Assembly: GCA_964520615.1 (NCBI GenBank)
Contig: CAZFNL010000137.1
Span: 84,898 to 148,897 of the forward strand
Reading direction: 5' to 3'
Source of the DNA: an uncultured Gammaproteobacteria bacterium
GTDB taxonomy: Bacteria; Patescibacteriota; Microgenomatia; 2-02-FULL-39-11
Length of the DNA: 64,000 bases
In this document: in pieces, positions 1-38,216 of the stretch
How the letters are laid out: each line of letters opens with the position of its first letter
Numbering within the stretch: position 1 is the first letter of the stretch
Made by a program: the position numbers and the translations under genes
Notes under the pieces: model-generated
Databases searched by the model: none
Told to the model about the DNA's origin: nothing
What the model saw: only the letters and a program-made list of their open reading frames with translations

Positions 1-1898
1 AGATAAATGCGGCACCACAACTCAAACACAAATAATATCCAGACGCGCAAATGCTCACTCCAAAGCATCTTGCCCGGTTTTGACTCATAAAATTTATTGA
101 CCACTCCAGATATATATTTTTCGTTGAATATTCCTCTTTTTTTAAGGGACTCTGCGCTTAAAACTGATTTTATATAAGGTTTCAATTTTCCTTTCATGTA
201 AATCACTCTCGGGATGGCAAAACCTGTTTTTTTGTGATTTATCACTTCCTTTGGCAACCAGTCTGCCACAGCTTTCTTGAGGATATATTTTGAAATTCCA
301 TCTCTAAACTTACGGGAAGGGTGAATTCTTGCTGAAAATTCAACAAGTCTGGGATCAAGAAAGGGCACTCTTGCCTCAAGAGAATTTGCCATACTCATCA
401 TATTCATACCCAAAAGCAAATCATCTCTGGTATAGCTTTTAAGGTCAATATAGTTTAATTGATCTACTGGATGCCAGCTTTTTATTTTCTGATACAACCC
501 GTCAAAATAATTTTGTGTGCTATAGTTTCCGTAATGCTTTGCTAAATAATCCTGACTGTAAATGTTTTTTTTCTCCTCCTCCTGATAAGCAAAATAAAGA
601 TAAAGGCTGCGCCGGACAAGAGTCGGCAGATTAAAAAAATCCTGTGATACTGATAAGACTTTCTTCCAGTCTGACCGGAAAGCAATCCTTTTCATCAGTA
701 AAAAAAGGAGTGATCTCGCGGCCGGAGGAATATGGTTGTATATGTCTCCTATAGATTTGGTATTGTAAAGCTCACTGTGGTATCCGGCAAAAAGCTCATC
801 CCCGCCAAGTCCTGACAAAGCTACTTTTACATCCTTTGCCGCCAGACGGGAAATAAAATATGTTTCGAGTGATCCTCCCGTGGGCTGGTCGAAATAATAG
901 ATTATTTGAGGAAGACTCTCTACCAAATCATTCTGTGATACGGTAAACTCCGTATGTATTGTCCCGTAACGTTTTGCTACCATTCCGGCATATTTTCTCT
1001 CATCATAGGCGCTACCCCCTTCAGACCAAAGCGAGTAAGTCCGTACGGGATGTCCTGACGACATTGAAAGAAGCGCAACAACTGTCGAAGAATCCACACC
1101 ACCAGAGAGATACGCACCTACCGGCACATCTGATACCTTGGCATAAGCTACCGCAGATACCAATTTTCTTTTCAGTTCTTCTATTTCCTCTTCTTTCGGA
1201 ATGGTTTTATTCTGCCATAAACCAACCGGGAGTTCCCAGTACTTCTCAATTCCGACTCCTCTTTTATCCACTGTCATGACTCTACCGGGCAAAAGACTAT
1301 TTACCCCTTCTATTATTGTCATAGGACTGGGGATGGAAAATATAGAAAGGTAGTGATGTAAAGATTCCGAACTTATCTCCCTCTTAACCAAACCTGACGC
1401 CAATATAGATTTTAATTCTGAGGCAAAAATAAAAGTTTTACCTACTTTAGTCCAATAGAGAGGGTTTACACCCAATTGATCGCGAACCAATATAAACTTA
1501 GACTGCCGTTTATCCCAGATACAAAATGCAAATTGTCCATTTAGTTTTTTAACAAACATGAGACCATACTCCCTGTAGCCGTTCAATATTACCTCCGTAT
1601 CAGTATGAGAAATGAATTCGTATCCCTTACCGACTAAATCTTTTTTCAATTCTTCAAAATTGAATATTTCACCGTTAAAGGTTATCCAGAATTCCCCATC
1701 TTTTGATGCCATTGGCTGACTACCAGCTATCGTTGGATCAATAATTGCCAGCCTGCGGTTTGCCAATCCGATATTTTCCTCCAAATGCTCACCGTGGCCA
1801 TCAGGACCCCTATGAACCAGAACGGAATCCATTCTGTGAAGGATTTTTTTATCAACTTTATGTCCATCAAAATTAAAAACTCCTGCTATGCCGCACAT
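1..1898 (-). CDS. asnB: Asparagine synthase (glutamine-hydrolysing), AsnB/WbpS-like amidotransferase. The 3' end runs off the window.
   Basis: The reverse-complement translation from 1898 begins MCGIAGVFNFDGHKVDKKILHRMDSVLVHRGPDGHGEH..NIGLANRRLAIIDP, a class-II glutamine amidotransferase N-terminus. An SGGVDSS PP-loop motif lies near 1090 in the same frame. The frame stays open to position 1. This ORF is absent from the supplied ORF track because it crosses the window edge. Confidence 0.8.
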   Translation of the reverse strand, partial: MCGIAGVFNFDGHKVDKKILHRMDSVLVHRGPDGHGEHLEENIGLANRRLAIIDPTIAGSQPMASKDGEFWITFNGEIFNFEELKKDLVGKGYEFISHTDTEVILNGYREYGLMFVKKLNGQFAFCIWDKRQSKFILVRDQLGVNPLYWTKVGKTFIFASELKSILASGLVKREISSESLHHYLSIFSIPSPMTIIEGVNSLLPGRVMTVDKRGVGIEKYWELPVGLWQNKTIPKEEEIEELKRKLVSAVAYAKVSDVPVGAYLSGGVDSSTVVALLSMSSGHPVRTYSLWSEGGSAYDERKYAGMVAKRYGTIHTEFTVSQNDLVESLPQIIYYFDQPTGGSLETYFISRLAAKDVKVALSGLGGDELFAGYHSELYNTKSIGDIYNHIPPAARSLLFLLMKRIAFRSDWKKVLSVSQDFFNLPTLVRRSLYLYFAYQEEEKKNIYSQDYLAKHYGNYSTQNYFDGLYQKIKSWHPVDQLNYIDLKSYTRDDLLLGMNMMSMANSLEARVPFLDPRLVEFSARIHPSRKFRDGISKYILKKAVADWLPKEVINHKKTGFAIPRVIYMKGKLKPYIKSVLSAESLKKRGIFNEKYISGVVNKFYESKPGKMLWSEHLRVWILFVFELWCRIY

Positions 1899-1904
1899 AA
1901 ACGA

Positions 1905-3092
1905 TTAAATTATCTCTTTATAAACATCTTCCGTTCTCTCAACAATTTTATCTATAGAATACTCATTTTTAACCATTCTATTGGCATTTCTCCCGAAATA
2001 ACTGCGGAAATTTTCCCGTTTCAAGATCTCTTCCAAACCCTGTGCTATCTTTTTCGCATTATTATCAACTATTTTGCCCGCGTCGTATTCTATGATTCTG
2101 TCAAAACCTGATTTATCAGATAACAGAAGAGGTAGATTGCAAGCGGCCGCCTCTAACGCGGAAATAGGCATACCCTCAGCGTAGGAAGTCAAAGCAAATA
2201 CATGAGCAGCTGATAAAGCCGCCAGCTTAGCCCTTCCCGTAAGATTACCGGCAAAAATTACCGCTTTTTCCAAACCATTACTCCTTGTTGTCATCTTTAA
2301 GTCGTCCAGATATTCTTTTTTTTCTGCAGGCCCTGCAATCACTAGTTTAATATTGTCTTTTTTATAATGTATATATAATAGTGATTTTATCAGAAGCTCA
2401 ATTCCTTTTTTGGGATGTATCCGTCCAAGAAAAAGAATGACACAATCGTTTTCTTTTAATCCCCATTGACTACGAAATTCAACTTTTTTGGGAAGTTTTA
2501 GGAATAGATTAGCGTCAATACCGTTAGGAATTACTATCACATTTTTCTTATTAATCCCCAATTTCAAATATGATTTTTTCTCTTCCTCTGTCAGGGCGAT
2601 AATTTTTGCCGCTCCCAAAAGGAGTTTTTTGCCGCCAAATTGGTAAAATAACTTTTTCCTTCCTAGATTACCTTCTTTTTCCGACATCTTGGCCGTACCG
2701 TGTCCCGACAATATATAAGGGATGCCCTTTTTTTTTGCCCAAAAAGCCGCCCACAAATGCATTGGGGTATATATTTCATGCATATGGATTATGTCAAAAT
2801 CTGAGATAGTTCTTATAAGTTTAAGGAAAAAAGCTGGCGGGGAAAAAATATGTTTTTTGAAGGCAAGATTTCCGGAAATATTTTTGAAGTAATAAACGCC
2901 AAATCCTTCAATCCTTATTTTTTTATTTGTCTGTGCTTTAATACTATCTGTATCGCTGCCTAAATCAGTAGTAAATACTATCACTTCATGACCATGTTTT
3001 ACCAATTCTCGGCTTAGATTATATACTGCCGTTGCGCTTCCTCCAACTGAAAGAGCTGGAAAAAAGTATGGGACTAATTGAAGAATTTTCAT
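1905..3092 (-). CDS. Glycosyltransferase family 4 (GT-B, Glycos_transf_1).
   Basis: 395 aa. The N-terminus MKILQLVPYFFPALSVGGSATAVYNLSRELVKHGHEV is a GT4 N-domain, and the C-terminal half EGMPISALEAAACNLPLLLS is a retaining GT-B motif. Confidence 0.85.
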   Translation of the reverse strand: MKILQLVPYFFPALSVGGSATAVYNLSRELVKHGHEVIVFTTDLGSDTDSIKAQTNKKIRIEGFGVYYFKNISGNLAFKKHIFSPPAFFLKLIRTISDFDIIHMHEIYTPMHLWAAFWAKKKGIPYILSGHGTAKMSEKEGNLGRKKLFYQFGGKKLLLGAAKIIALTEEEKKSYLKLGINKKNVIVIPNGIDANLFLKLPKKVEFRSQWGLKENDCVILFLGRIHPKKGIELLIKSLLYIHYKKDNIKLVIAGPAEKKEYLDDLKMTTRSNGLEKAVIFAGNLTGRAKLAALSAAHVFALTSYAEGMPISALEAAACNLPLLLSDKSGFDRIIEYDAGKIVDNNAKKIAQGLEEILKRENFRSYFGRNANRMVKNEYSIDKIVERTEDVYKEII

Positions 3093-4798
3093 TTAGTAAT
3101 CAGATAATCTTCCAGTATCATTGCGTCCAGTCCTGAATTTTCAAAAGTGGAAAGAGCAACGTCAGGAGTACCCACTATTGGAAACCCATGCAGGTTAAAT
3201 GAAGTATTAAGGAGTCCCGCAACACCAGTCAGTTTTTTAAATTCGGTCAATATGCCTCTGTAACCGGGATTCCAGTTATCTACCGTCTGCGGTCTACATG
3301 TTCTGTCATATGGATGAAGCCCGGCAACAATCTCGTCTGCTCTTTCTTTTGTGTCGAAAGCCTCAATCATATATCTGGCAGGTTTTTGGTAATCTTTCAA
3401 ATATTTATCTGAATCCTCCTCCAGAATGGAGGCGGCAAAAGGCATCCAAAAATCCCTTTGCTTTATGGCAAAGTTTAATTTTGAAATCACCCGCAAATCT
3501 CTTGGATCAGCCAGAATACTGCGATTACCCAATGCTCTAGGCCCCCACTCGTCCCGGCCGGCAAACCTGGCGACAATTTTACCACTGTTTAACAGTTTAG
3601 CGGTTTCTTTTGCCATCCCCTTCTCCAATTTCACGGCTTTCTTTTTCCATTTTGATTTTTTTAGTAAACTGTCGACTTCTTCAGAGGAATATTTTTGTCC
3701 GAGATACAAATCTCCAAGCGGCTCAACCTCAGCCTTTATTTTCATCTCCTGACACAATCTGACATAACCTTCAATGGCAACCCCGGCTGGAGTCCCGCCG
3801 TCATCAGCTGCCGGATAGAAAAAAGCTTTTTTCACTTCTGGCATTTCCCTTATTACTTTGTTTGCCTTCACATTGAGAAATGAACCTCCGCTTGCGGCCA
3901 CGTTATGCACTCCGGTATGAGCTATTGCATTTTTTACCCATTGTGAAACCAGATCTTCAAAATATTTCTGTGTTGCAAAGGCAATATTGTCAAATCTGCG
4001 CCCGGCAAGAATAGAAGCAAGATTTCTAGTGACATCATATAGATAAGCACCGAAAATATTCTGGAACTCCAGGGGTCTTCCCGGATTTATCCTGATGATT
4101 TTTTTGAATTCATCCATCAGTCCGTCATCCCTGCCGTATGGCGCGAGTCCCATCACCTTGTACTCATGTTCCCAGCGTTTCATCCCGAGGTACCCGGTTA
4201 TCTCACTGTAAATATTGTTGGACAGGCTGTCATAAAATGTCGTTTCGGCAACTCTTTTGATTTTATTATTTTTACCTACTGAAACCGTAGCGGATAACCC
4301 GTCCCCCGACCCGTCCAGTGTAAGAATTAATGTTTCATCCTGAAAACCTGAACCGTAATAAGCGCAGGCGGCGTGGCTCAGATGATGGTCAATAAAAATG
4401 ATTTTTTTCTCCCCAATCCCAAGACTTTCAAATAGATCCTTCAGTCGACCTGTTTGCCTGAACTTATGAAGAAGTTTTACATATGCTTTTGCAAAAAGAT
4501 GTGAATGAAGGTATGGTGCCAGTTCGACCTGAAGCCTTCCCAGCCAGTTGATGTCAGCATATGGTGGACCCACACGGACAAAACAGCCTATGGCGATAAG
4601 GTCGGTTTGCTCAGGCGGTATCCCCGCAATTTCAAAAACTTTGGCAATGGCAAATACCGGCACGCCGGAATAATTCTTTATGTTATTCAGCCTCTCCTCG
4701 GATATGGCTGAAAGTATTTTCCCGTCACGAAGGAGTGCCGCCCCCGCATTGTGCCCGTCATGAATACCCAAAACAGTAAGATGATTTTTCTTATCCAT
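3089..4798 (-). CDS. Carbamoyltransferase, NodU/CmcH (HypF-like) family.
   Basis: 569 aa. The N-terminus LTVLGIHDGHNAGAALLRDGKILSAISEERLNNIK is typical of NodU/CmcH O-carbamoyltransferases, and the length fits the family. It overlaps the downstream GT4 by 4 nt. Confidence 0.85.
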   Translation of the reverse strand: MDKKNHLTVLGIHDGHNAGAALLRDGKILSAISEERLNNIKNYSGVPVFAIAKVFEIAGIPPEQTDLIAIGCFVRVGPPYADINWLGRLQVELAPYLHSHLFAKAYVKLLHKFRQTGRLKDLFESLGIGEKKIIFIDHHLSHAACAYYGSGFQDETLILTLDGSGDGLSATVSVGKNNKIKRVAETTFYDSLSNNIYSEITGYLGMKRWEHEYKVMGLAPYGRDDGLMDEFKKIIRINPGRPLEFQNIFGAYLYDVTRNLASILAGRRFDNIAFATQKYFEDLVSQWVKNAIAHTGVHNVAASGGSFLNVKANKVIREMPEVKKAFFYPAADDGGTPAGVAIEGYVRLCQEMKIKAEVEPLGDLYLGQKYSSEEVDSLLKKSKWKKKAVKLEKGMAKETAKLLNSGKIVARFAGRDEWGPRALGNRSILADPRDLRVISKLNFAIKQRDFWMPFAASILEEDSDKYLKDYQKPARYMIEAFDTKERADEIVAGLHPYDRTCRPQTVDNWNPGYRGILTEFKKLTGVAGLLNTSFNLHGFPIVGTPDVALSTFENSGLDAMILEDYLITK

Positions 4799-4990: not shown

Positions 4991-5770
4991 ATGAAGACAA
5001 TCATACTCTGCGGAGGAACAGGTACCAGGCTTAAAGAAGAAACGGAATACAAGCCAAAACCGATGATAAACGTCGGCGGCAAGCCCATCATTTGGCATAT
5101 CATGAAAATATACGCCCACTGGGGCTTCAATGAGTTTATTCTGGCGCTGGGCTATAAGGCCAACTATATCAAGGACTTTTTCCTCAACCAGAAAGCTTTT
5201 ACCACAGACTTTACACTAGAAACAAAAACACACAAAACTTCCTACCACTGGGAGCATAGAAAAGAAGTGGATGATTTCAAAATCACATTTGTCGATACCG
5301 GCATGGATACTCTTCCGGGAGAAAGGATTCTTCTCTGTGAGAGCTACATCCCCAAAAGCGATAAGGATTTTATGGTGACATACGGCGACGGCGTGACGGA
5401 TCTTGATATCGTAAAACTTGTGAAGTTCCACAAGAAACAAAACACAATAGGAACCATAACCGGAATCCATCCCAAATTTAAGTTTGGAGTGGTAAAAGTA
5501 GGAAACAACAATAAGATACAGGAGTTTAAGGAAAAACCATACATGTCTGATTGGGCAAACGGAGGATATATGGTTTTCAAGAGGGATTATTTCAAATACC
5601 AGAAGCCGAAAGAATTGGAACACGCCGCTCTTGCCCGCCTAGCCAAAATTTCACAGCTCTCCATTTACAAACACACAGGTTTCTGGTTTGCTGTCGACAC
5701 TAACAAAGAATATGACCAACTGAACGGCATCTGGGAAAGCGGCAATCCGCCGTGGAAAGTATGGAAGTGA
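4991..5770 (+). CDS. rfbF: Glucose-1-phosphate cytidylyltransferase.
   Basis: 259 aa. MKTIILCGGTGTRLKEETEYKPKPMINVGGKPIIWHIMKIYAHWGFNEFILALGYKANYIKDFF is the canonical RfbF/DdhA N-terminus, and the length is typical. Confidence 0.9.
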   Translation: MKTIILCGGTGTRLKEETEYKPKPMINVGGKPIIWHIMKIYAHWGFNEFILALGYKANYIKDFFLNQKAFTTDFTLETKTHKTSYHWEHRKEVDDFKITFVDTGMDTLPGERILLCESYIPKSDKDFMVTYGDGVTDLDIVKLVKFHKKQNTIGTITGIHPKFKFGVVKVGNNNKIQEFKEKPYMSDWANGGYMVFKRDYFKYQKPKELEHAALARLAKISQLSIYKHTGFWFAVDTNKEYDQLNGIWESGNPPWKVWK

Positions 5771-5774
5771 AATT

Positions 5775-5812
5775 TGGTTATGGGTTGTCGGTTGTGAGTT
5801 GTGAGTGTATTT
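5775..5812. repeat. Heptanucleotide tandem repeat (GGTTGTG-type), 4-5 copies, in the intergenic region after rfbF.
   Basis: ggttatg ggttgtc ggttgtg agttgtg agtgtat, followed by a T6 run. Confidence 0.6.
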
Positions 5813-5860
5813 TTTAGTTCCAACTTTTCTAATTTCTGAAATCTAGAATCTATTTTAATT

Positions 5861-6898
5861 ATGCCGAATAAATACAGAAACATTCTCGTCACCGGTGCCA
5901 CAGGCTTTGTCGGCTCCCACCTGACAGAAGAACTAGTAAAAACAGGAGCAAAGGTTACTGCCACCACTCACCATCCTGTAGCGCGCAATTCCTATTTTGC
6001 CTCAAAGCATCTCGGACGAAAAACAAAAGTGGTACAAATAGAACTGGCTGACTATAAATCAGTTGGAAAGCTGATTTCAGAAACAAAATCTGACTGTATT
6101 TATCACCTGGCCGCCCAACCTGTAGTCGATACAGCTTTCCGGGATCCTAAAGCAACACTATATTCAAATATAGTCGGTACGATAAACCTTCTTGAAGCGG
6201 CAAGAAGATACGGCAAAACCCGAGCAATTGTCATCGCTTCATCGGACAAAGCGTACGGGAAAATGGAACCGGGAATGATGAATAATGAATTAAGAATAAT
6301 GAATACAAAAAAAAATAACTACCAACGACCAACTGCCAACCACCAACTAAAATATATTGAATCCGATCCTCTTCGCGGCGATCATCCCTATGAAGTCTCA
6401 AAATCCTCAGCAGACCTTATCTCCTATTCTTATTTTAAGACTTACGGCCTTCCGGTAACCATTACCCGCTTCGGCAATATTTACGGGGAAGGCGACACGC
6501 ATTTCTCCCGGATCATTCCGGGTATCATGGAGGCAATTGTGAAAAAGAAAACATTTCCTATAAGAAGCAACGGCAAATATATCCGTGACTATCTTTATGT
6601 CAAAGATGTCGTCAGGGGATATATGCTTTTGGCCCAAAATATAGGAAAAACAAAAGGAGAAGCGTACAATTTCGGCTCGGATGAATCGTTGAGTGTAGTA
6701 GATCTGATCAGCCTTCTGGAAAAAGTATTGAAAATAAAGATAAAATATAAGATTCTGGATATAGCCAAAAACGAAATCCCCTACCAGTCGCTGGACTGGA
6801 CCAGAATCAGAAAAACCCTCGGCTGGAAACCCCAATATTCTTTTGCGGATACTGCAAAAAATATTTACCTGTGGTACGCAGGATATTTTCGATCTTAA
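5861..6898 (+). CDS. rfbG: CDP-glucose 4,6-dehydratase-like enzyme (extended SDR) carrying an in-frame insertion of about 26 aa.
   Basis: 345 aa. It has the Rossmann motif VTGATGFVGSHL, then HLAAQPVV, SDKAYGK, the catalytic PYEVSK, and GYMLLAQ. It is adjacent to rfbF. The insertion reads MEPGMMNNELRIMNTKKNNYQRPTANHQLK between the SDK and YxxxK motifs, where RfbG normally has about 15 aa. Confidence 0.7.
   Translation: MPNKYRNILVTGATGFVGSHLTEELVKTGAKVTATTHHPVARNSYFASKHLGRKTKVVQIELADYKSVGKLISETKSDCIYHLAAQPVVDTAFRDPKATLYSNIVGTINLLEAARRYGKTRAIVIASSDKAYGKMEPGMMNNELRIMNTKKNNYQRPTANHQLKYIESDPLRGDHPYEVSKSSADLISYSYFKTYGLPVTITRFGNIYGEGDTHFSRIIPGIMEAIVKKKTFPIRSNGKYIRDYLYVKDVVRGYMLLAQNIGKTKGEAYNFGSDESLSVVDLISLLEKVLKIKIKYKILDIAKNEIPYQSLDWTRIRKTLGWKPQYSFADTAKNIYLWYAGYFRS
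6278..6345. repeat. Intragenic heptamer arrays (ATGAATA x4, then an A9 tract, then ACCAACN x4). These are reverse-orientation relatives of the two intergenic heptamer repeats.
   Basis: atgaata atgaatt aagaata atgaata c aaaaaaaaa taact accaacg accaact gccaacc accaact. The reverse complement resembles the repeat at 4877-4938 and the repeat at 5775-5812. Confidence 0.55.
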
Positions 6899-6901
6899 AA
6901 C

Positions 6902-7846
6902 TCAATTCTTTCTCCTGTGATCATTTATTATCCTCTCGATTATATATGTAGGCCGTTGCTTCACTTCTTCAAAGATTATCTGTATATATTTCCCCAAAAT
7001 ACTGATAGCCAACATCTGCGCTCCGCCGAAAAAGACAATAGAAAGAAGAATGGGGATTTGCGCCCTGATGGGATTACCAATCAGCAATACAGTAAATAAA
7101 TACAATAAAAGAAAAATAAAAGAAAGTAATGTCAGAAAAAATCCTAAAGTTGTCATAACATCCAAAGGTATGAATGTAAATCCAAGAAGTCCCCTTTGAG
7201 AATCTCTAATGTAATCGAAAAATGTATTCTTGCTTCTACCATACTTTCTTGCGGCTCTTTCGTATTCTACTTTGGCTACACGAAAACCTACCCATGCTCT
7301 CAAGCCTCTAAAAAAACGGTTCCTTTCCGGTAAATCATTTATTACATCCAATACTTTCCTATCCAATAGACAAAAACTTCCAGCCTCAAGAGGCATATCG
7401 ATATTTGAAAGTCTTTTAAAAACTAAGTAAAAGGATTTTCTGATTATTGTCATAACCGGAGTATCGTTGATTTTTTTCCTGACTCCGATTACGACCTGAG
7501 CTCCTTTTTCCCACTCATTCACAAACCTTAAAATTATATCGGGAGGATCCTGAAGGTCGCAATCAACTATTGTTAGCGCGTCCCCGATAGCATGCTTCAT
7601 CGCCGCTTGTGAGGAATATTCGGAAGTGAAATTGCGTGACATAAAAAGCGCGGTTGCTTTTTTGTCATTCCGGCAAATTTTTTTTATCACTTCTCTTGAC
7701 TTGTCCAAACTGGCATTATCCGCAAACACTATCTCATAATCATATTTGCCCAATTTCTTCATCGTTTTTACTATTTCTCCATATGCATAGGAAATATTAT
7801 CCTCCTCATTGTAAGTAGGGACTATGATGGATATAGTTTTTTTCAT
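6902..7846 (-). CDS. GT2 polyprenyl-phosphate sugar synthase (GtrB/ArnC/DPM1-like) with a C-terminal 2-TM anchor.
   Basis: 314 aa. ISIIVPTYNEEDNISYAYGEIV..YEIVFADNASLDKS is a GT-A motif with DxD. The C-terminus FIPLDVMTTLGFFLTLLSFIFLLLYLFTVLLIG..ILLSIVFFGGAQMLAISILGKY forms the two TM helices characteristic of GtrB/ArnC. Confidence 0.8.
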   Translation of the reverse strand: MKKTISIIVPTYNEEDNISYAYGEIVKTMKKLGKYDYEIVFADNASLDKSREVIKKICRNDKKATALFMSRNFTSEYSSQAAMKHAIGDALTIVDCDLQDPPDIILRFVNEWEKGAQVVIGVRKKINDTPVMTIIRKSFYLVFKRLSNIDMPLEAGSFCLLDRKVLDVINDLPERNRFFRGLRAWVGFRVAKVEYERAARKYGRSKNTFFDYIRDSQRGLLGFTFIPLDVMTTLGFFLTLLSFIFLLLYLFTVLLIGNPIRAQIPILLSIVFFGGAQMLAISILGKYIQIIFEEVKQRPTYIIERIINDHRRKN

Positions 7847-8643
7847 TGACGGGGAAACTTAAAACTGATTCTTTTCTGGAGCATTTTTAACCTTTTATCA
7901 TCCTCATGACATATTCTCTCGTAATAATTATTCTTATTCCTCAGCCAAAGCAGTTCAAATTCATTGGCAAGTATTATGCCTTCTTCGATTTTTCCGGAAT
8001 TTCTGGTGGTTTTGAAAACTATTTTCCGGGTTTCGTAATAATCAAGAAGTCCTTTCCGGACTAATTTTTGGATAAAAGGTATGGCTTCTTTGGCAATTCC
8101 GCCGCCCATTGCTGTTTTTAAACGCTTTTTTTTAACCTGCTCAAACATATCTTCGGCAATCTTATACATTCCGGGACTATTTATTTCCTCCCGAGAAATA
8201 CCAAGAGATCCGGACATATCCACCCGACCAAGCGTAATCTTCCCAATAAGTTCTAAATTAGGGGAACGTAATATCTCTTTTAGATTCTGGTAGGCCGTGT
8301 AAGTTTCAATATTTACTCCAAAAATTATCCTCTTCATGAGATCTTCCGGGAAATGATAATTTATTGCCTCAAGAAATTTTTTCATGGCATACGCGCTCTC
8401 TACCATAGGAGCAACAAGTCCCGTTACTCCTATATGCTGCGCTTCAAACATGTCGGTGATCGCTTCAGCACCGCCGATTTTCAATACAATTCCCAATTCG
8501 GCTTTCTCAGCAATATCTTTCAATCTCATTGCCTCATGTATTCTGACCGCCTCTGCTTCAAACTCAGCTTTCACTTCACAAACTCCATAACTCTTTTTCA
8601 TTTTTTTAAGCAATAAAACCATTTCCAGTTCCAAATCCTTCAT
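7843..8643 (-). CDS. HpcH/HpaI aldolase or PEP/pyruvate-utilising TIM-barrel family protein (tentative).
   Basis: 266 aa. Motifs GLVAPMVESAYAMKKF, GVNIETYTAYQNLKEIL and ITLGRVDMSGSLGI resemble HpcH/citrate-lyase-beta signatures. I cannot confirm this without a search. Confidence 0.4.
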   Translation of the reverse strand: MKDLELEMVLLLKKMKKSYGVCEVKAEFEAEAVRIHEAMRLKDIAEKAELGIVLKIGGAEAITDMFEAQHIGVTGLVAPMVESAYAMKKFLEAINYHFPEDLMKRIIFGVNIETYTAYQNLKEILRSPNLELIGKITLGRVDMSGSLGISREEINSPGMYKIAEDMFEQVKKKRLKTAMGGGIAKEAIPFIQKLVRKGLLDYYETRKIVFKTTRNSGKIEEGIILANEFELLWLRNKNNYYERICHEDDKRLKMLQKRISFKFPRQ

Positions 8644-10471: not shown

Positions 10472-11398
10472 TTATTGTTCCTTTATTTTAATTTTTCCCA
10501 AATAAGGATCTTTTATTACCATTTCTTTATCAATCATGCCTAAATTTTTTTTATACCAATTATATAAACTTCTTATCCCCTCCGCCAAAGATATCGGTTT
10601 GAAGTCCGGAATTTCCTTCTTCAGCCGCGAAATATCAGCAGTGTATTCCAGATTCATGCCTTTATGCAATATATTGATATCCGATCCGTAATCACTGGCA
10701 GAATTTATAAGCTCAGCAATTTCTACAAGATCTGTTTTTCCTCCGCTTCCTATATTATATACTTTATATTTCGGCTCATGATTGATGAAATAGCTTACTA
10801 TTTTTACCAGATCGTCAATATATAAATAGTCAAATACAACATTCTGGCCTATTTTAATCTCCTGCTTTAAAAGGTTTTTTACAATTGAATTTGATATAAA
10901 CTTAAAAAGATAGTTTTCATATTTCCCGTAGACGCCGAAAAGTCTAAGACAATATATTTTTTCTGATTTTAGCGCAAAGCTGGAACAGACAAATTTATAA
11001 AAGCCGTAATCATCCTTGGGTACCCGCTTTCCGAATTCTTTCTCGCTTATATTTACCAAAGCCCGGCTTTTATCATATTCCGCACCCGATCCGAAATATA
11101 TAAACTTTTCGATTAAATCTTCGCATAAAACAAGATTTATAAAAATCCGCAGATTTACTTCTACGACATTTTTATAATTTCGCGAATCTCTTCCTCCTCC
11201 GGCATTTGCACAATGCAGAATAATTTGAATTTTATTCTTTTTTATAAACTCTCTTAACCGGGAAGAATCCTTATAGTCAAAATCACTATGAGAGGGAGCC
11301 AATATATCAAATTTATCGCTTAAAAATTCCTTTATGTTTTTGCCTATAAAGCCCGATCCGCCTGTCAAAAAAATTTTCTTTTTCACTTTTCCTCCCAA
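10472..11398 (-). CDS. NDP-4-keto-6-deoxyhexose reductase-like enzyme (RmlD/RfbJ/RfbS-like extended SDR).
   Basis: 308 aa. It has the short Rossmann motif IFLTGGSGFIGKNI and a YGxxK region (FGVYGKYENY). It sits next to the ThDP enzyme and the CDP-sugar genes. Confidence 0.55.
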   Translation of the reverse strand: MGGKVKKKIFLTGGSGFIGKNIKEFLSDKFDILAPSHSDFDYKDSSRLREFIKKNKIQIILHCANAGGGRDSRNYKNVVEVNLRIFINLVLCEDLIEKFIYFGSGAEYDKSRALVNISEKEFGKRVPKDDYGFYKFVCSSFALKSEKIYCLRLFGVYGKYENYLFKFISNSIVKNLLKQEIKIGQNVVFDYLYIDDLVKIVSYFINHEPKYKVYNIGSGGKTDLVEIAELINSASDYGSDINILHKGMNLEYTADISRLKKEIPDFKPISLAEGIRSLYNWYKKNLGMIDKEMVIKDPYLGKIKIKEQ

Positions 11399-13224
11399 AG
11401 CGGTATAAGCATATTGCTTTTAAATTCATCACGGGGCAAAAACGGACCCATGTCTTCAAGCGCAGGAGAAACAAACTGCCCGTTGGGTAATTTCCTGGCC
11501 ATCAGTTTAGGATTAAGCGTCAGATTTTTGACAGAGTTTATGACACATACCATCGGGCCTTTACTTTTTAATACATTTTGGATTTTCCTTTTCATATCAC
11601 TATGATTATTTATCTCTATAGCCGGTAATCCATAAGCTTTTGCCACTTTTATAAAATCCGGACAGCTCACTCCAGATTTTTTGTCTACCGCCACGTGTCT
11701 GCCCTCAAACAGATTGTCTTGGGTATTTCTTATGGATTGGTATCCGTCATTATCATAAATAAAAAGCTTTATGGGTAGCCGGTGATGCTTCATCACCTGT
11801 AATTCATGAATATTAAGTTGTATACTGCCGTCACCTTCAAAACAGATAATTCTTTTATTTTTTCCGGAGGCAAAAGCAGCTCCTACTGCCGCAGGCAATC
11901 CGTATCCCATTTGGGCGCAACCGTTGTTCAGAACTATACGCTGTTTGTTCCTGACCCAAAATGCCTGGTATGAACAATTAAGAGGTCCTACACCGTCAGA
12001 AAGTACTATTATTTCGCCTTCGTCAAGCATCGAGCTGATTGTTTCAATAAAACAATAAGGATTTACTGCGTTCTTCTCTTTCCAATACTCAGGTAAAACT
12101 GTTTTATATTTTCGATTAAGCTTTCTCCCGTAGTCCATCCATTTGTTAATCACCAATTTAAAATTCTTCTTGTTTAATTGCTTTATCATTTCAACAATAA
12201 ATTCTTTCGCGTCAACATTTATCTTCAGGTCAGGTGACAATATTGGTTTATCTGTTTCCTTTCTATCAATATCAACCATCACGTGATATGCTTCCCTGGC
12301 AAAAGCCTTATAAGTAAATCCTATAGTCCGAATATCCAACCGTGCTCCGATAGACAGCAGAAAATCACTGTTTTGCAGGATGAAATTGGCAGCTCTTTGC
12401 CCGAAAGCGTGTCCCCTGCCGAAAAAATATTTATTATCAGAAGGAATCAAATCGTATCCGGCATAACTTGTCAGTACCGGAATTTTCAGGAGTTCAACCA
12501 GCTTTAAAAATTCTCCGGCAGCTGCCGACAGCCGGATGCCGTTGCCCGCATACAGAACCGGGCGTTTGGAATGGCTTAATCTAAATATGGTTCGTGAAAC
12601 CAGCTTCGACAAAAGTAGTTTTTTATCATCTTCTGAAGGCAATTTCAGTTCTTCACCAGGAACAAATCTCTTTAACTTTCCTTTTTCTATATACCAACCT
12701 TGTATATCCAAAGGTATATCAAGCCAAGCCGGACCCGGCCTGCCTGATTTTGCCATATATACGGCCTTCTCCAGATGATATCTGATATCATCCGGCTTCA
12801 GGACTGTCACGGCATATTTTGTAATCGGCTTTACCATGTCAATGATATTTATTTCCTGATCTCCCAATTGCCGGGATATTTTTCCTGCCCCCATAGTTTC
12901 TCTTTTTACTTGTCCGGATATTATCAGCATGGGAATGGAATCAAGCCAGCCGCCAAGGACTCCCGTAATCGCATTGGTTCCTCCGGGCCCTGTGGTCACA
13001 AGACACACGCCCAAATTCCCTGAAATCCTCGCGTAAGCTTCCGCGGCTGTGGCACAAGCTTGTTCGTGATAGTTGCAGATATATTTCAGTTTTCCTGCTT
13101 TTCCTATAGAATCAACAAGGTGAATATTTCCGCCGCCTGATATAAGAAAAATGTGGTTTACTCCCAAATTTTCGATGAAACTGATAATGTAATCAGATAA
13201 CTTTATTTTAACCATGGCACTCAA
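11383..13224 (-). CDS. ThDP-dependent acetolactate-synthase-like enzyme, a candidate YerE-type NDP-4-ketosugar two-carbon branching enzyme.
   Basis: 613 aa. The TPP_enzyme N-domain is NHIFLISGGGNIHLVDS..CLVTTGPGGTNAITGVLGGWLDSIPMLIISGQV. The C-terminal ThDP motif is EGDGSIQLN..YDNDGY. There are no ilvN or ilvC neighbours, and it is embedded among CDP-deoxysugar genes. Confidence 0.75.
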   Translation of the reverse strand: MSAMVKIKLSDYIISFIENLGVNHIFLISGGGNIHLVDSIGKAGKLKYICNYHEQACATAAEAYARISGNLGVCLVTTGPGGTNAITGVLGGWLDSIPMLIISGQVKRETMGAGKISRQLGDQEINIIDMVKPITKYAVTVLKPDDIRYHLEKAVYMAKSGRPGPAWLDIPLDIQGWYIEKGKLKRFVPGEELKLPSEDDKKLLLSKLVSRTIFRLSHSKRPVLYAGNGIRLSAAAGEFLKLVELLKIPVLTSYAGYDLIPSDNKYFFGRGHAFGQRAANFILQNSDFLLSIGARLDIRTIGFTYKAFAREAYHVMVDIDRKETDKPILSPDLKINVDAKEFIVEMIKQLNKKNFKLVINKWMDYGRKLNRKYKTVLPEYWKEKNAVNPYCFIETISSMLDEGEIIVLSDGVGPLNCSYQAFWVRNKQRIVLNNGCAQMGYGLPAAVGAAFASGKNKRIICFEGDGSIQLNIHELQVMKHHRLPIKLFIYDNDGYQSIRNTQDNLFEGRHVAVDKKSGVSCPDFIKVAKAYGLPAIEINNHSDMKRKIQNVLKSKGPMVCVINSVKNLTLNPKLMARKLPNGQFVSPALEDMGPFLPRDEFKSNMLIPLWEEK

Positions 13225-13297: not shown

Positions 13298-14356
13298 GTG
13301 GTTAATAAAAAGTCAAGAAATTGCCCAATCTGTAATTACCAATCAAATTTTCCCATTTTTACCCAGAAGTTTGCCGGCGGGCTTGAACATAAAATCGTAG
13401 TATGCGATAACTGCGGTTTCGTATTTGTAAAATATACATACGACCGGAAAACAGCTAACAAACATTATAAAAAAAATTCAAAATATAATCACGGCCGGGA
13501 TGAAAATCTGCATGAAATATACGCAAAAATTATACAGCAATATTGTCCTCCAACCTCTAAGATACTTGACGTAGGCTGTTCAGACGGACATTTATTGTAT
13601 CTTTTAAGACAAAAGGGTTTTAAGAGCCTTGATGGTTTTGATCCCAGCCCTCAATGCCAAATAGCCGCATCTAGAAAATACAAAATAAAAATACGAACGG
13701 CCGAACTCTACTCTTTTGACACCCGGAGAAAATACGATATTATTATTCTTGCCCAAGTTTTAGAACATCTGGTTGATATAAAACAGGCAATTCAAAAACT
13801 TTCTTCAATACTTTCCGGAAATGGCTACTTTTTTATCGCCTTGCCTGATGCAGATAATTTTTATAAGGATTTCGAAGAACCTTTCTATGAATTCTCTCTT
13901 GAGCATATTAATTTTTTTGGTGTTTCTGCCCTTCACGCTCTCATGCATGACTTTCAGCCTATCCATTTCACCTCGGACGGTAAAGTAATTTTTTCCCTTT
14001 GGCAAAAAAGCGGAGGTGTCAGGAATTCACTAAAAAAATATATCCGGCTGTCAAAGGCAAAAATGGCCAGGATAAACAGAGTAATCGACAATTGCCCTGA
14101 CAGATTAATAGTCTGGGGAGCCGGATCGCTCACGGAAAGGCTTTTCACTTCCACAAAACTTGCCCAGAAAACTATCAAATTAGCAGACAGAAACTTGAAT
14201 TTGGCGGGTAAAAAGCTGATAGGAATAGAGATCATCCCTCCGGAAAAGCTCCGAAGCTATAAAGAACCGGTACTCATATCCTCATTCCGCTTTAAGGACG
14301 AGATTCTCAAGGATATAAAAAAAATGGGTATAAAAAATAAAATAATTACGTTTTGA
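13298..14356 (+). CDS. NDP-sugar C-methyltransferase-like protein (TylCIII/NovU architecture): Zn-ribbon, class-I SAM methyltransferase, then a C-terminal Methyltransf_14-like domain. It has a GTG start.
   Basis: 352 aa. CPICNYQ..CDNCGFVF is a Cys4 ribbon. LDVGCSDGHLL and IIILAQVLEHL form the SAM fold. The C-terminus LIVWGAGSLTERL..IGIEIIPPEKL..VLISSF resembles the C-methyltransferase C-terminal domain. Confidence 0.7.
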   Translation: MVNKKSRNCPICNYQSNFPIFTQKFAGGLEHKIVVCDNCGFVFVKYTYDRKTANKHYKKNSKYNHGRDENLHEIYAKIIQQYCPPTSKILDVGCSDGHLLYLLRQKGFKSLDGFDPSPQCQIAASRKYKIKIRTAELYSFDTRRKYDIIILAQVLEHLVDIKQAIQKLSSILSGNGYFFIALPDADNFYKDFEEPFYEFSLEHINFFGVSALHALMHDFQPIHFTSDGKVIFSLWQKSGGVRNSLKKYIRLSKAKMARINRVIDNCPDRLIVWGAGSLTERLFTSTKLAQKTIKLADRNLNLAGKKLIGIEIIPPEKLRSYKEPVLISSFRFKDEILKDIKKMGIKNKIITF

Positions 14357-14369
14357 AATCAATAAACAT

Positions 14370-15071
14370 TTATTTTGCAAAGCGTAAAAGAAGAATGCCT
14401 ACCAGATTTCTAAAGGCAATTGATGGAATTTTATCTAGTGTATAGACTTTTGTCTTATCACCACGTTGAGTCTTACGGTGATGTATCGGTATTTCATTTA
14501 TGGATAATTTAGCTTTAATAGCCACAGCTATAAAACCCCACCAAAACCCTTCATTTAAATAAGAAAGATACTTTGTGTAAGATAAGATTGCCCTCCTCTT
14601 GAATAAAACAAAAGGAGCGGATGGATCGTGTATTGATGCAGAAAAAAGTAATTTATAGATTATTCGGAAAAAAAGAGAAAAAACTTTTCTTTGTAGAGGA
14701 TCGGACCTTCTCCGTCTCCAACCTATCAGTATGTCTGCCGACATTCTCTTCTTCCAAAACTTGGGAAAATCTTCCGGATTGCATTGGCCGTCAGAATCGA
14801 CACAAAGTAAAAACTCTGACTGTGCGGACTTTATACCATCCAATACTGCACTACCGTAACCTCTCCTTTTCTTTTTCTGATTGAGGCTAATAGGATAATT
14901 CAATTTTAGTTTTTTTAATAATTCTTTTGTTCCATCAGTTGAACCATCCTCGCAAATTATGAAATTGAAACGGATTTTGTTTTTATCGAGAAAAATTTTC
15001 CATTCCGAAAGGACATATTCTATAACTTCTTTTTCATCATACACAGGCAAAATTATTGATAGTGAACTCAT
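14370..15071 (-). CDS. Glycosyltransferase family 2.
   Basis: 233 aa. LSIILPVYDEKEVIEYVL..ICEDGSTDGTKELL and CVDSDGQ (DxD). Confidence 0.75.
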   Translation of the reverse strand: MSSLSIILPVYDEKEVIEYVLSEWKIFLDKNKIRFNFIICEDGSTDGTKELLKKLKLNYPISLNQKKKRRGYGSAVLDGIKSAQSEFLLCVDSDGQCNPEDFPKFWKKRMSADILIGWRRRRSDPLQRKVFSLFFRIIYKLLFSASIHDPSAPFVLFKRRAILSYTKYLSYLNEGFWWGFIAVAIKAKLSINEIPIHHRKTQRGDKTKVYTLDKIPSIAFRNLVGILLLRFAK

Positions 15072-15135: not shown

Positions 15136-16386
15136 ATGCCTTCCGATATATCATTTGTCCCGGGAAAGACTTATATTCCAGCCTCTGGGAAAGTATTTGG
15201 CGAAAACGAAATAGAAAATGCCGTATCAGCCGCCCGTGAGGGATGGTGGACGGAAGGTCATTTTGCCAAAGAATTTGAAAAGGAATTCTCCCGCTTTTTG
15301 GGCGTGCGCTACGTTTCACTGGTCAACTCCGGCTCCAGTGCCAATCTGACCGCTTTATTTTCCCTGACTTCGAGAGTTTTTGGAGAAAGAAGTTTGAAAA
15401 GAGGCGATGAATTTATTACAGGAGCTGTCGCCTTCCCCACAACCGTCAATCCCGGCATCATCTTTGGTATGACACCGGTCTTTGTGGATGCTGATCTTTC
15501 TTCTCTTAATATTAATACGGAAAAAATTGAAAAAGCCATCACCAAAAAAACAAAACTTATTATGGCAGCCCACACCCTAGGCAACCCCTATAATCTGGAT
15601 AAAATAGTGGCACTAGCCAAAAAATACCATCTATGGTTGATTGAGGACTGCTGTGATGCCTTGGGAAGCCGTTATGAAGGGAAACTTGTGGGAACATATG
15701 GCGATATATCCACATTCTCCTTTTATCCTGCTCACCAGATTACCATGGGTGAAGGCGGAGCAGTCGTTACCAATAACCCCCTTATCCACCGCTCCATACG
15801 TCAATTCCGCGACTGGGGCAGGGACTGCTGGTGCGATACAGGAAAGGATGATACTTGCGGCAAGCGGTTTGGTTGGAAAATGGGAGAACTGCCCGCAGGT
15901 TACGACCATAAATATATCTACTCCCAGATAGGTTTTAACCTGAAACTTACGGATTTCCAGGCGGCAATCGGCCTGGCACAACTTCAAAAATTGCCGCAAT
16001 TTATAAAAAAAAGGAAAGAAAATTATAAAGAACTATTTAAATTCTTTCGAAGATATAATAAGTTTTTTGAGCTTCTTACAACAACAGATAAAGAAGATCC
16101 TTGCTGGTTTGGCTTTCCTCTTCTTGTCAAGAAAGACGCACCGTTTACCAGAAATCAGCTCACAGAGTATCTGGAAAAAGAAAAAATAGGTACCAGAAAT
16201 GTCTTTTCAGGAAACCTTCTTCGGCACCCGGCATATCTGAAAATAAAATACAGGACTGCAGGAAAGATTGTCAACGCAGATCACGTGATGAACAGGGCAT
16301 TCTGGTTGGGAGTTTTTCCAGGAATAAATTTTGAGATGATAGAATATATCAAAAAGACTATCGAAAAATTTCTTAAAAGATTCTGA
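15136..16386 (+). CDS. ddhC: CDP-6-deoxy-L-threo-D-glycero-4-hexulose-3-dehydrase (E1; DdhC/RfbH/AscC-like), of the DegT/DnrJ family.
   Basis: 416 aa. FYPAHQITMGEGG has His where aminotransferases have the Schiff-base Lys, which is the E1 hallmark. The cysteines in IEDCCDALG..(57 aa)..DCWCDTGKDDTCGK form C-X57-C-X1-C-X7-C, the E1 [2Fe-2S] motif. Confidence 0.85.
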   Translation: MPSDISFVPGKTYIPASGKVFGENEIENAVSAAREGWWTEGHFAKEFEKEFSRFLGVRYVSLVNSGSSANLTALFSLTSRVFGERSLKRGDEFITGAVAFPTTVNPGIIFGMTPVFVDADLSSLNINTEKIEKAITKKTKLIMAAHTLGNPYNLDKIVALAKKYHLWLIEDCCDALGSRYEGKLVGTYGDISTFSFYPAHQITMGEGGAVVTNNPLIHRSIRQFRDWGRDCWCDTGKDDTCGKRFGWKMGELPAGYDHKYIYSQIGFNLKLTDFQAAIGLAQLQKLPQFIKKRKENYKELFKFFRRYNKFFELLTTTDKEDPCWFGFPLLVKKDAPFTRNQLTEYLEKEKIGTRNVFSGNLLRHPAYLKIKYRTAGKIVNADHVMNRAFWLGVFPGINFEMIEYIKKTIEKFLKRF

Positions 16387-29927: not shown

Positions 29928-31544
29928 TTACCTTCCCACTATCCTGAAGGCAACACTGCCGTCCAAAAAATGGATCTCAGAGAGAAACTTGCCGGCGGAA
30001 GCGGCCGGAATTTCATCAGGAGTACCCACAAAAAGTGTATCGCTTAACCTTGAATCCTTTGTCCAATCGATATTGCGGAACTCATATTTGCCAAAAGATC
30101 TGTTTGCTCTCTGAATCTGTCCGCTTCCCCAGTTTTTCTGATACCAGGCGGGGTCAGTTTTATTGTAAAAAAGGAAAAATATATACGGCTGGTCATACCT
30201 GTAGGTTACGATTATTCTTTTGTAATTTGCCGCATATTTATCTACAACCGAGACGGCTTGTTTATAACCATACTGCCATGACTGGGAATCCATAATCGGC
30301 GTATGCACCCAATACATATGCATATAATAAAAAAAGTTGACTAGCAGTAGAAAAACAGCCAAGGTTACAAAAGATTTATAAAATTCCGGTCTTATTTTTA
30401 CTTTCAGGATATATAGGAATTCAAAAAATCCAACAGCTGTAAAAATCTGGTAAGTAGGAATAAACTCCAATGAGCGCACCGCATGAGGAGTACCAGTTGT
30501 TATTGAGGCCGCGGCAGGTGCCAGAAGAAACCACAGAAATATTACGTTTGCTCTTTCATCCCTATGGTTTAACATGTAATAAATTCCAAAAAGAATAAAC
30601 GGAAGAGTCCAAATATAAAGCATACCCATATTTAATGCATGATGACGGCCGGGTGCATCACCATAGAGGAAAAGAAAATCAAAGTTAAAGTGGTCAAGAT
30701 ATCCAGCTAGAATATCAAATCCGTACACTACTCGCCTGTTATGAGTCAAAACACCCAGGAGATCACCTCTCCCACGATCAAATTCTATTTTGCCTATGCT
30801 ATTACCCAACCTTTCCTGGTCATTCATTATTGTAACCGAACCAAGCCTTGCACTTGTAGTTCTCATTTCTATATAAACCGGGGCAACAAGAATTGCTAAA
30901 ATTATGGCACTTGCCAAAAGCCATTTCAGATTCTTCAAAATATATTTTCTGAAAATAAATATAAGCCCCAGAACCATAACTGGACTAATAAGCCTCGGGC
31001 TATGGTAAGCATAGATTGATAGTGCAAATGAAACGGCGGAAAAAAGATAAAACCATCTTTTTTTCATCCCTTTTAGGAAAAACAGAACTCCGGACATGAA
31101 AAAAAACAGACCTAAATTAGCTTCGAAAGCCACGCGGGAAAACTGTATCTGCCAGGGAGAAATAGAGAAAAGAAAAGTAAAAAAAAGATGAAACCGTCGA
31201 CTTCTTTTTGGGAAAAGCTCTTTGATAAGAAAATACGCTACGATAACGGCTAAGAATCCGAAGAATGCCGATATAAGCCTGGTTGAAAATTCAGTCAAAC
31301 CCAGGATTGCCACAGGAATTATAGTCAAATAAGAATATAATGGTGGCTTATAATCTCCGAATGATTTTATCGATAAAGGCAAAAACCTACCATATTCATC
31401 ACGTCCTGTTTGCAATATCGAATAGGCATTGTATCCCAATGAAGCCTCATCCCAATCCAAAGACGGAGGATTGGTTCCCAACTGCCAAAATCTTAGAAAA
31501 AAGGCAAGAGCAATAATTGAAATCAGGGTTATTTTATATCTCAT
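29928..31544 (-). CDS. PMT_2/ArnT-like GT-C glycosyltransferase (GT39/GT83-type), array paralog 1.
   Basis: 538 aa. LRFWQLGTNPPSLDWDEASLGYNAYSILQTGRDEYG has the loop-1 DE motif, followed by about 11 TM segments and a C-terminal soluble domain. Confidence 0.75.
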   Translation of the reverse strand: MRYKITLISIIALAFFLRFWQLGTNPPSLDWDEASLGYNAYSILQTGRDEYGRFLPLSIKSFGDYKPPLYSYLTIIPVAILGLTEFSTRLISAFFGFLAVIVAYFLIKELFPKRSRRFHLFFTFLFSISPWQIQFSRVAFEANLGLFFFMSGVLFFLKGMKKRWFYLFSAVSFALSIYAYHSPRLISPVMVLGLIFIFRKYILKNLKWLLASAIILAILVAPVYIEMRTTSARLGSVTIMNDQERLGNSIGKIEFDRGRGDLLGVLTHNRRVVYGFDILAGYLDHFNFDFLFLYGDAPGRHHALNMGMLYIWTLPFILFGIYYMLNHRDERANVIFLWFLLAPAAASITTGTPHAVRSLEFIPTYQIFTAVGFFEFLYILKVKIRPEFYKSFVTLAVFLLLVNFFYYMHMYWVHTPIMDSQSWQYGYKQAVSVVDKYAANYKRIIVTYRYDQPYIFFLFYNKTDPAWYQKNWGSGQIQRANRSFGKYEFRNIDWTKDSRLSDTLFVGTPDEIPAASAGKFLSEIHFLDGSVAFRIVGR

Positions 31545-33160: not shown

Positions 33161-33162
33161 AT

Positions 33163-36452: not shown

Positions 36453-36454
36453 TT

Positions 36455-38215: not shown

Positions 38216-38216
38216 T

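Follow-up and report, generated by a model that had tools for sequence, protein, structure and literature searches.

A predicted E1-type 3-dehydrase without a neighbouring E3 reductase in a large glycan locus of a probable CPR bacterium

The window analysed here, a 64-kb stretch of contig CAZFNL010000137.1 (64,000 nucleotides in full), carries on its + strand a gene whose product belongs to the E1 (AscC/DdhC/RfbH) family of sugar 3-dehydrases, which take the 3-hydroxyl off an activated sugar on the way to 3,6-dideoxy sugars and have the DegT/aspartate-aminotransferase fold. The gene is an intact open reading frame (ORF) of 416 amino acids, running from an ATG at 15136 to a stop codon ending at 16386. 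By homology to the E1 enzyme of Yersinia, the protein is predicted to be a genuine 3-dehydrase that uses pyridoxamine 5′-phosphate (PMP) and a [2Fe-2S] cluster to deoxygenate a nucleoside diphosphate (NDP) sugar. It would receive its electrons without a dedicated E3 reductase and hand its product to a branched-sugar pathway. We put the probability of this explanation as a whole, with enzyme type, mechanism, E3-less electron supply and branched-sugar fate taken together, at roughly 0.85. The gene and the segments that carry the assignment are as follows.

15136..16386, + strand: predicted E1/RfbH/DdhC-type PMP- and [2Fe-2S]-dependent NDP-4-keto-6-deoxyhexose 3-dehydrase gene (ORF, Pfam, NCBIfam, PDB 3BCX, structural model)
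15640..15666, + strand: IEDCCDALG, residues 169-177; holds the first of the proposed cluster ligands, Cys173, at 15652-15654
15721..15759, + strand: FYPAHQITMGEGG motif, residues 196-208; Tyr197 at 15724-15726 and His200 at 15733-15735
15823..15864, + strand: DCWCDTGKDDTCGK loop, residues 230-243; Cys231, Cys233 and Cys241 are the other three proposed [2Fe-2S] ligands

A phmmer search against the PDB returned Yersinia pseudotuberculosis E1 (3BCX) as the top match (E 2.6e-148), with residues 7-413 of the query aligned to residues 27-433 of E1 without a gap and 212 of 407 positions identical (52%). The constant offset of +20 pairs His200 with H220 of E1, and Cys173, Cys231, Cys233 and Cys241 with C193, C251, C253 and C261, which are reportedly the cluster ligands of E1 (Agnihotri et al. 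2004). In the same alignment, Asp174, next to the first proposed ligand, corresponds to D194, and Tyr197 and Phe325 correspond to Y217 and F345. The second PDB match, 3BB8, is the engineered H220K mutant, that is, a protein with a lysine in the column of His200. Salmonella RfbH, taken from an annotated rfb cluster, aligned in the identical register with 52% identity using MAFFT. The catalytic histidine, the four equally spaced cysteines and the equivalents of D194, Y217 and F345 are therefore common to the query and these reference enzymes. Compared with Yersinia E1, the query has an N-terminus that is 20 residues shorter, and the position of an extra E1 cysteine, C257, is occupied by Lys237.

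Alignment with E. coli ArnB using MAFFT places His200 in the column of ArnB Lys188 (FSFHAIKNITCAEGG), the residue changed in PDB entry 4OCA ("ArnB K188A") and the lysine that forms the Schiff base with pyridoxal 5′-phosphate (PLP). In the columns of Asp174, Tyr197, His200 and Phe325, ArnB carries His, His, Lys and His; alanine takes the place of Cys172 as well as of Cys173 in this protein, and the cysteine loop is spanned by gaps. D194, Y217 and F345 of E1 reportedly are residues of the dehydrase state whose counterparts in aminotransferases are histidines, and the combined D194H/Y217H/H220K/F345H replacement is said to turn E1 towards an aminotransferase (Smith et al. 2008). The first-pass annotation, which was made from the letters of this DNA alone, had read a histidine in place of the PLP-binding lysine and four cysteines in exact C-X57-C-X1-C-X7-C spacing. 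It proposed alignment with the Yersinia and Salmonella enzymes, and held that a histidine or cysteine at a non-equivalent position would undo its call. Both readings hold, and the histidine and all four cysteines fall at equivalent positions in the ungapped 3BCX alignment and, in the same register, in RfbH.

The protein contains six cysteines, at positions 172, 173, 231, 233, 241 and 323, of which Cys172 and Cys323 are non-ligands. Counted from Cys173, the spacing is C-x57-C-x1-C-x7-C without deviation, a motif that was reportedly worded in this way by Agnihotri et al. in 2004. When the pattern C.{57}C.C.{7}C was searched in a six-frame translation of the window, the E1 gene was its single match. 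In all 88 related loci the E1 homolog matched the same pattern, with a single stray match in 1.59 Mb. Because the pattern is unique in the window and present in every related locus, it is a conserved feature rather than a chance arrangement.

Family profiles lead to the same assignment. The Pfam family DegT_DnrJ_EryC1 (PF01041) matched residues 23-409 with 322 bits, and the NCBIfam RfbH equivalog NF011936 gave 633.9 bits (cutoff 423), covering positions 29-437 of its 440-position profile. All NCBIfam aminotransferase equivalog models remained far under their own cutoffs. An AlphaFold2 model built from 33 sequences (mean predicted local distance difference test score, pLDDT, 81.3; predicted template modelling score 0.84) was searched with Foldseek and found 3BCX as the best match (TM 0.87), followed by ColD (about 0.80) and then by aminotransferases. 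Together with the 3BCX and RfbH alignments, the NF011936 score and the 3BCX match of the model support the earlier assignment of a 3-dehydrase. That assignment is sound but routine, as related proteins from metagenome-assembled genomes (MAGs) are already named RfbH. For the gene alone little is at stake, since curated models already make the RfbH call.

Conservation was examined in a close set of 120 homologs (65-90% identity) plus E1, with counts out of 122, and in a distant set of 150 cluster representatives (37-69% identity). Cys173, His200, Cys231, Cys233, Cys241, Asp174, Tyr197 and Phe325 are invariant in the close set (122/122). The remaining cysteine positions vary there: position 172 is cysteine in 108 of the 122 sequences, position 323 in 105, and position 237, which corresponds to C257 of E1, in only 7. 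Each of the five hallmark residues is retained in 93-98% of the distant set (His200 in 147/150, Cys173 in 144/150, and Cys231, Cys233 and Cys241 in 139-140/150), and 132 of the 150 representatives have all five. Cysteine at the non-ligand positions is much rarer among these representatives, with 65/150 (43%) at position 172, 4/150 (3%) at position 237 and 7% at position 323. The hallmark residues are constant and the non-ligand cysteines drift; therefore, it is precisely the reported ligands that selection has preserved.

Two short Logan contigs carry the identical protein. Its nearest relative (locus L003, 90% identity) is encoded on a Logan contig of 154 kb, where the gene order is preserved. 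The next relatives, at 67-78% identity, are from Patescibacteria (Microgenomates, Roizmanbacteria, Gottesmanbacteria and Shapirobacteria). The host of the window is thus probably a bacterium of the Microgenomates class, within the candidate phyla radiation.

Many E1 homologs, though not the protein in the window, are interrupted by inteins at recurrent sites that coincide with hallmark residues (P0121, P0127, P0139, P0140, P0143, P0146, P0147, P0154, P0160, P0169, P0176, P0198, P0252 and P0261). At the site LIEDC|[C...HN]|CDALG, the equivalent of ligand Cys173 serves as the +1 extein nucleophile, and at DWGRD|[C...HN]|CWC the +1 residue is the ligand equivalent to Cys231. The third site, PAHQIT|[S...HN]|T.GEGG, lies three residues past the catalytic histidine. 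A further insertion was seen after DHKY in homolog P0223, near query residue 261.

The hallmark residues suggest the following course of reaction. The 4-keto group of an NDP-4-keto-6-deoxyhexose would first be bound by PMP as a Schiff base. This sugar is most likely CDP-4-keto-6-deoxy-D-glucose, which would be supplied by the products of the genes at 4991-6898, homologs of a cytidylyltransferase and a 4,6-dehydratase. His200, at the site of the Schiff-base lysine of aminotransferases, would take the C4′ proton, and the 3-OH would leave. The resulting glucoseen-PMP adduct would be reduced in two one-electron steps through the [2Fe-2S] cluster held by Cys173, Cys231, Cys233 and Cys241, freeing CDP-4-keto-3,6-dideoxy-D-glucose and restoring PMP. 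As reported for SpnQ, a general ferredoxin or flavodoxin system whose genes lie elsewhere would probably provide the electrons. Family membership, the equivalence of residues and their conservation are shown by the sequence data, and the cofactors, the CDP substrate and the route of the electrons are inferred. The 4-keto product would most likely pass to a YerE-like carboligase dependent on thiamine diphosphate (ThDP) and to the adjoining short-chain dehydrogenase/reductase (SDR), giving a C4-acyl-branched 3,6-dideoxyhexose similar to yersiniose or erwiniose. The locus encodes numerous glycosyltransferases that may then place this sugar into a surface glycan. The mechanisms of E1, SpnQ and ColD have been described, including the four-Cys [2Fe-2S] motif and the histidine in place of lysine that E1 and SpnQ share, the absence of the cluster from ColD, and the general reductases that serve SpnQ (PMC8987622).

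Two genes upstream of E1 are candidates for the supply of its substrate.

4991..5770, + strand: glucose-1-phosphate cytidylyltransferase homolog (RfbF-like; NCBIfam TIGR02623), presumed first supply step
5861..6898, + strand: NDP-glucose 4,6-dehydratase of the SDR family (NCBIfam TIGR02622), presumed maker of the E1 substrate

TIGR02623 is the best NCBIfam model for the first of these and matches from end to end (257 bits; cutoff 300), and the product is 39% identical to Salmonella RfbF. The second scored 199 bits with the CDP-glucose 4,6-dehydratase model TIGR02622 (cutoff 278) and 169 bits with dTDP-glucose 4,6-dehydratase, and its product is 27% identical to Salmonella RfbG. Co-occurrence was counted in 85 other E1 loci, within ±10 kb of E1. 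A cytidylyltransferase homolog was present in 58 of them. Homologs of the 4,6-dehydratase of the window (at least 150 bits) were found in 34, and the 4,6-dehydratases near E1 as a whole come in two forms, one RfbG-like and one like that of the window, each mostly accompanied by a cytidylyltransferase homolog. Because both homologs are encoded here and also accompany E1 in other loci, CDP-4-keto-6-deoxyglucose is the most likely substrate. The first-pass annotation had tied the hallmarks to CDP-6-deoxy-L-threo-D-glycero-4-hexulose 3-dehydrase, the activity of Yersinia E1; these bear out PMP/[2Fe-2S] chemistry of the E1/SpnQ type but do not fix the nucleotide sugar.

The probable user of the E1 product lies in an operon on the opposite strand, between the supply genes and E1.

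11383..13224, - strand: YerE-like ThDP-dependent carboligase (Pfam TPP_enzyme_N/M/C), probable user of the E1 product
10472..11398, - strand: SDR reductase (Pfam Epimerase/RmlD_sub_bind) in a YerF-like position, directly downstream of the carboligase with a 16-nt overlap
7843..8643, - strand: HpcH/HpaI-type aldolase-like gene (Pfam HpcH_HpaI, 28.4 bits, cutoff 25), possible maker of a hydroxy-keto-acid donor

Read from 13224 to 6902 on the minus strand, this operon encodes the ThDP enzyme, the SDR reductase, a FabG-like SDR, a putative sugar-phosphate cyclase related to AroB (348 bits with TIGR04425, below the cutoff of 400), the HpcH/HpaI aldolase-like protein and a family 2 glycosyltransferase (GT2). 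The best PDB match of the carboligase is JanthE (8RPH), over its full length and with 440 bits, whereas the top acetolactate synthase reached 260 bits; JanthE is a YerE-like enzyme (PMC12188165). In the published scheme, YerE joins pyruvate to CDP-4-keto-3,6-dideoxy-D-glucose, the product of E1 and E3, and YerF then reduces the branch, and in the erwiniose pathway an aldolase provides a longer hydroxy-keto-acid donor (PMC9306805). The SDR at 10472-11398 may act in the manner of YerF in this scheme, and a donor-making role for the aldolase-like protein is possible by analogy with ErwI/HpaI (PMC9306805).

A homolog of the ThDP enzyme (at least 200 bits) was found in 40 of the 85 E1 loci, and one is present in each relative's locus for which a gene table was drawn up, namely L003 and the contigs carrying P0046 and P0002. 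Homologs of the SDR at 10472-11398 (at least 100 bits) were present in 12 of the 85 loci and an abequose-synthase-like gene (at least 100 bits) in 3. Because a YerE-like enzyme is so much more frequent near E1 than an abequose-synthase-like one, the likeliest end product would be a C4-acyl-branched 3,6-dideoxyhexose rather than abequose, paratose or tyvelose. Likewise, unlike Salmonella, the window holds no partner of the abequose- or paratose-synthase type; the best match to Abe, with 89 bits, is on the 4,6-dehydratase gene.

The likeness to the yersiniose and erwiniose pathways (YerE/YerF and ErwE/ErwF/ErwI) lies in the combination of E1 with a YerE-like carboligase and a following SDR, and in the presence of an aldolase-family gene in the operon; the carboligase is likened to YerE only by way of its match to JanthE. 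In contrast to the erwiniose pathway, the aldolase of the window is of the HpcH/HpaI type, with a weak Pfam match, and not of the BphI type. The FabG-like SDR and the AroB-related cyclase have no counterpart in either published scheme.

In loci L005-L007, on the contigs that carry P0002 (76% identical to the query) and that NCBI names "Patescibacteria group bacterium", two split transketolase pairs (Transketolase_N plus Transket_pyr/C) lie near E1 in addition to the YerE-like enzyme, a hint of a second route to two-carbon branching.

Several points weigh against the explanation given above. The cofactors and activity of the protein are predictions from sequence, and both the naming of the four cysteines as ligands and the wording of the motif follow what Agnihotri et al. 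2004, cited in PMC8987622, reportedly described. Confidence in the structural model is lowest over residues 221-270, which hold the cysteine loop, with pLDDT below 50 at 233-236, and the geometry of the cluster is thus putative. Both supply homologs score below their NCBIfam equivalog cutoffs and lie 8-10 kb upstream of E1, with the opposite-strand operon in between. A tblastn search with Salmonella RfbI found no match in the window at either E<=1e-5 or E<=1, ferredoxin-motif regular expressions found no credible plant-type [2Fe-2S] motif in it, and Pfam scans of essentially all window ORFs of at least 110 amino acids found no Fer2, FAD_binding_6 or NAD_binding_1 domain.

The last of these points bears on electron supply, as E1 needs electrons that classically come from E3 (AscD/DdhD/RfbI) (PMC8987622). 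In the Salmonella rfb cluster, the E3 gene is directly upstream of rfbF-G-H; in contrast to that rfbI-F-G-H-abe operon, the E1 gene of the window has no adjoining ddhD/rfbI. A regular expression for the motif of ferredoxin-NADP+ reductase (FNR), whose domains E3 combines with Fer2, was also negative for the window, and RfbI gave no tblastn match in any of the 85 E1 loci, even at E<=1. Outside enterobacteria, the absence of a dedicated E3 beside E1 is the rule in these loci. The lack of E3 near E1 therefore suggests reliance on general ferredoxin or flavodoxin systems in the manner of SpnQ, the TDP-4-keto-2,6-dideoxyglucose 3-dehydratase of Saccharopolyspora spinosa. SpnQ is likewise a PMP/[2Fe-2S] 3-dehydrase with the four-Cys motif and no dedicated E3, and is supplied with electrons by ferredoxin or flavodoxin reductase pairs of general function (PMC8987622). 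Such a supply is the likely operating mode of the enzyme in the window.

Fusions of E1 to E3 were sought among long homologs, and the extra domains proved to be SDR reductases or inteins. In P0122-P0125, P0128 and P0145, E1 is naturally fused at its N- or C-terminus to an SDR domain (RmlD_sub_bind/Epimerase), and none of these proteins is fused to an E3-like reductase. The sole reductase-like neighbour of E1 in the 85 loci is a 261-aa FNR-like ORF in a Fibrobacteres MAG (L060, 8378-9160, + strand), about 840 nt upstream of E1. It has NAD_binding_1 and FAD_binding_8 domains and no ferredoxin domain, and is a candidate alternative electron donor.

The resemblance to SpnQ raises the alternative that the enzyme performs the same PMP/[2Fe-2S] chemistry on another nucleotide sugar, such as a dTDP-4-keto-2,6-dideoxyhexose. 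The lack of a dedicated E3 would fit this as well (PMC8987622), the dTDP and CDP models score almost equally on the 4,6-dehydratase and both remain below cutoff, and Streptomyces proteins named "RfbH" are 48-50% identical to the query, close to the enterobacterial values. However, the only nucleotidyltransferase of the window fits glucose-1-phosphate cytidylyltransferase best and does so over its full length, a homolog of it accompanies E1 in most of the 85 loci, and the annotated window ORFs include no RmlA, no 2,3-dehydratase and no 3-ketoreductase set. SpnQ differs from the predicted enzyme in both nucleotide and sugar, and the window has a cytidylyltransferase homolog and no enzymes of 2-deoxygenation; the comparison with SpnQ uses its published description. 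We regard a substrate of the SpnQ type as improbable.

A second alternative does without a reductase altogether: the enzyme could act like ColD, with hydrolysis of the adduct and renewal of PMP with glutamate, or it could be a 4-aminotransferase, an activity that SpnQ shows in vitro without reductase, and the cysteines would then be structural or vestigial. The consistent absence of an E3-type gene near E1 is compatible with this, and the catalytic histidine is common to ColD, the GDP-4-keto-6-deoxy-D-mannose 3-dehydratase (PDB 2GMS), which shares the fold and has no Fe-S cluster, regenerating PMP with glutamate (PMC8987622). Against it, the four ligand cysteines are far more conserved than neighbouring cysteines and keep exact spacing in all 88 related loci, whereas ColD (193 bits, about 30% identity) lacks three of the four together with their loop, showing gaps or other residues at query positions 231, 233 and 241. 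The query, with its full cysteine loop, falls outside the cluster-free ColD type. In addition, the YerE-like neighbour requires a 4-keto acceptor and not a 4-amino sugar (PMC9306805), and E1 gave no transaminase activity under such conditions (PMC8987622). Taken together, this makes an enzyme independent of a reductase very unlikely.

Finally, an ordinary PLP-dependent sugar aminotransferase of the DegT/DnrJ family, mis-read as a dehydrase, would have the same Pfam family and fold, but is refuted by His200 in place of the Schiff-base lysine, by Asp174, Tyr197 and Phe325 where ArnB has histidines, by the E1-specific cysteine loop and by the low NCBIfam aminotransferase scores, and we assign it a negligible probability.

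With the protein read as an E1-type 3-dehydrase, the interest shifts from the gene to its setting. The textbook pair of E1 and E3 seems to be the exception, with E3 nearby in none of the 85 loci and a YerE-like carboligase in almost half of them. Here, a probable bacterium of the candidate phyla radiation (CPR) devotes a large glycan locus to what appears to be a branched 3,6-dideoxy sugar. Tentatively, E1-type 3-dehydrases outside enterobacteria may generally lack a dedicated E3 and may serve mainly to supply YerE-like ThDP carboligases instead of taking part in the synthesis of abequose, paratose or tyvelose, although we hold this generalization to be somewhat less than an even bet. If true, C4-acyl-branched 3,6-dideoxyhexoses similar to yersiniose, erwiniose or caryophyllose would be widespread parts of surface glycans, even in ultra-small CPR bacteria, and the aldolase, cyclase and SDR of the operon could supply an unusual keto-acid donor, leading to a branched sugar that has not yet been described. 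The locus offers a testable system for asking which reductase serves E1 outside enterobacteria and which surface sugars CPR bacteria display.

The general description of CPR bacteria of the Microgenomates class is that of cells without an outer membrane. Because of this description of the host group, the product name "lipopolysaccharide biosynthesis protein RfbH" is probably a misnomer for the biology here and serves as a family label.

Two further genes lie between the carboligase and E1.

13298-14356, + strand: class I methyltransferase (Methyltransf_23), upstream of E1
14370-15071, - strand: GT2, directly upstream of E1

The order of methyltransferase, GT2, E1 and a 551-aa membrane protein is kept in L003. 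The 64-nt divergent intergenic region upstream of E1 contains consensus-like -35/-10 pairs and nothing decisive, and the promoter and terminator scan around E1 found no terminator-like site.

Elsewhere in the window, seven membrane glycosyltransferase paralogues of the PMT_2 type, each about 540-620 amino acids long, stand nearly in tandem at 29928-42416 (- strand), with one interruption, an ORF of 292 amino acids that matches no Pfam family. More PMT_2-type copies and YfhO/PTPS_related membrane proteins are found at other positions, including 52740-54116 and 61900-63393. As a set of lipid-linked-sugar transferases, this is unusually large. An SDR gene at 55614-56738 (- strand) contains a four-cysteine insertion (CPKCG...x20...CLNC, at 56241-56327) similar to a zinc ribbon or a rubredoxin knuckle. 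An AsnB-like asparagine synthase at 3-1904 (- strand), which runs off the start of the window, and a carbamoyltransferase at 3089-4798 (- strand) hint that the glycan may also be modified by amidation or carbamoylation.

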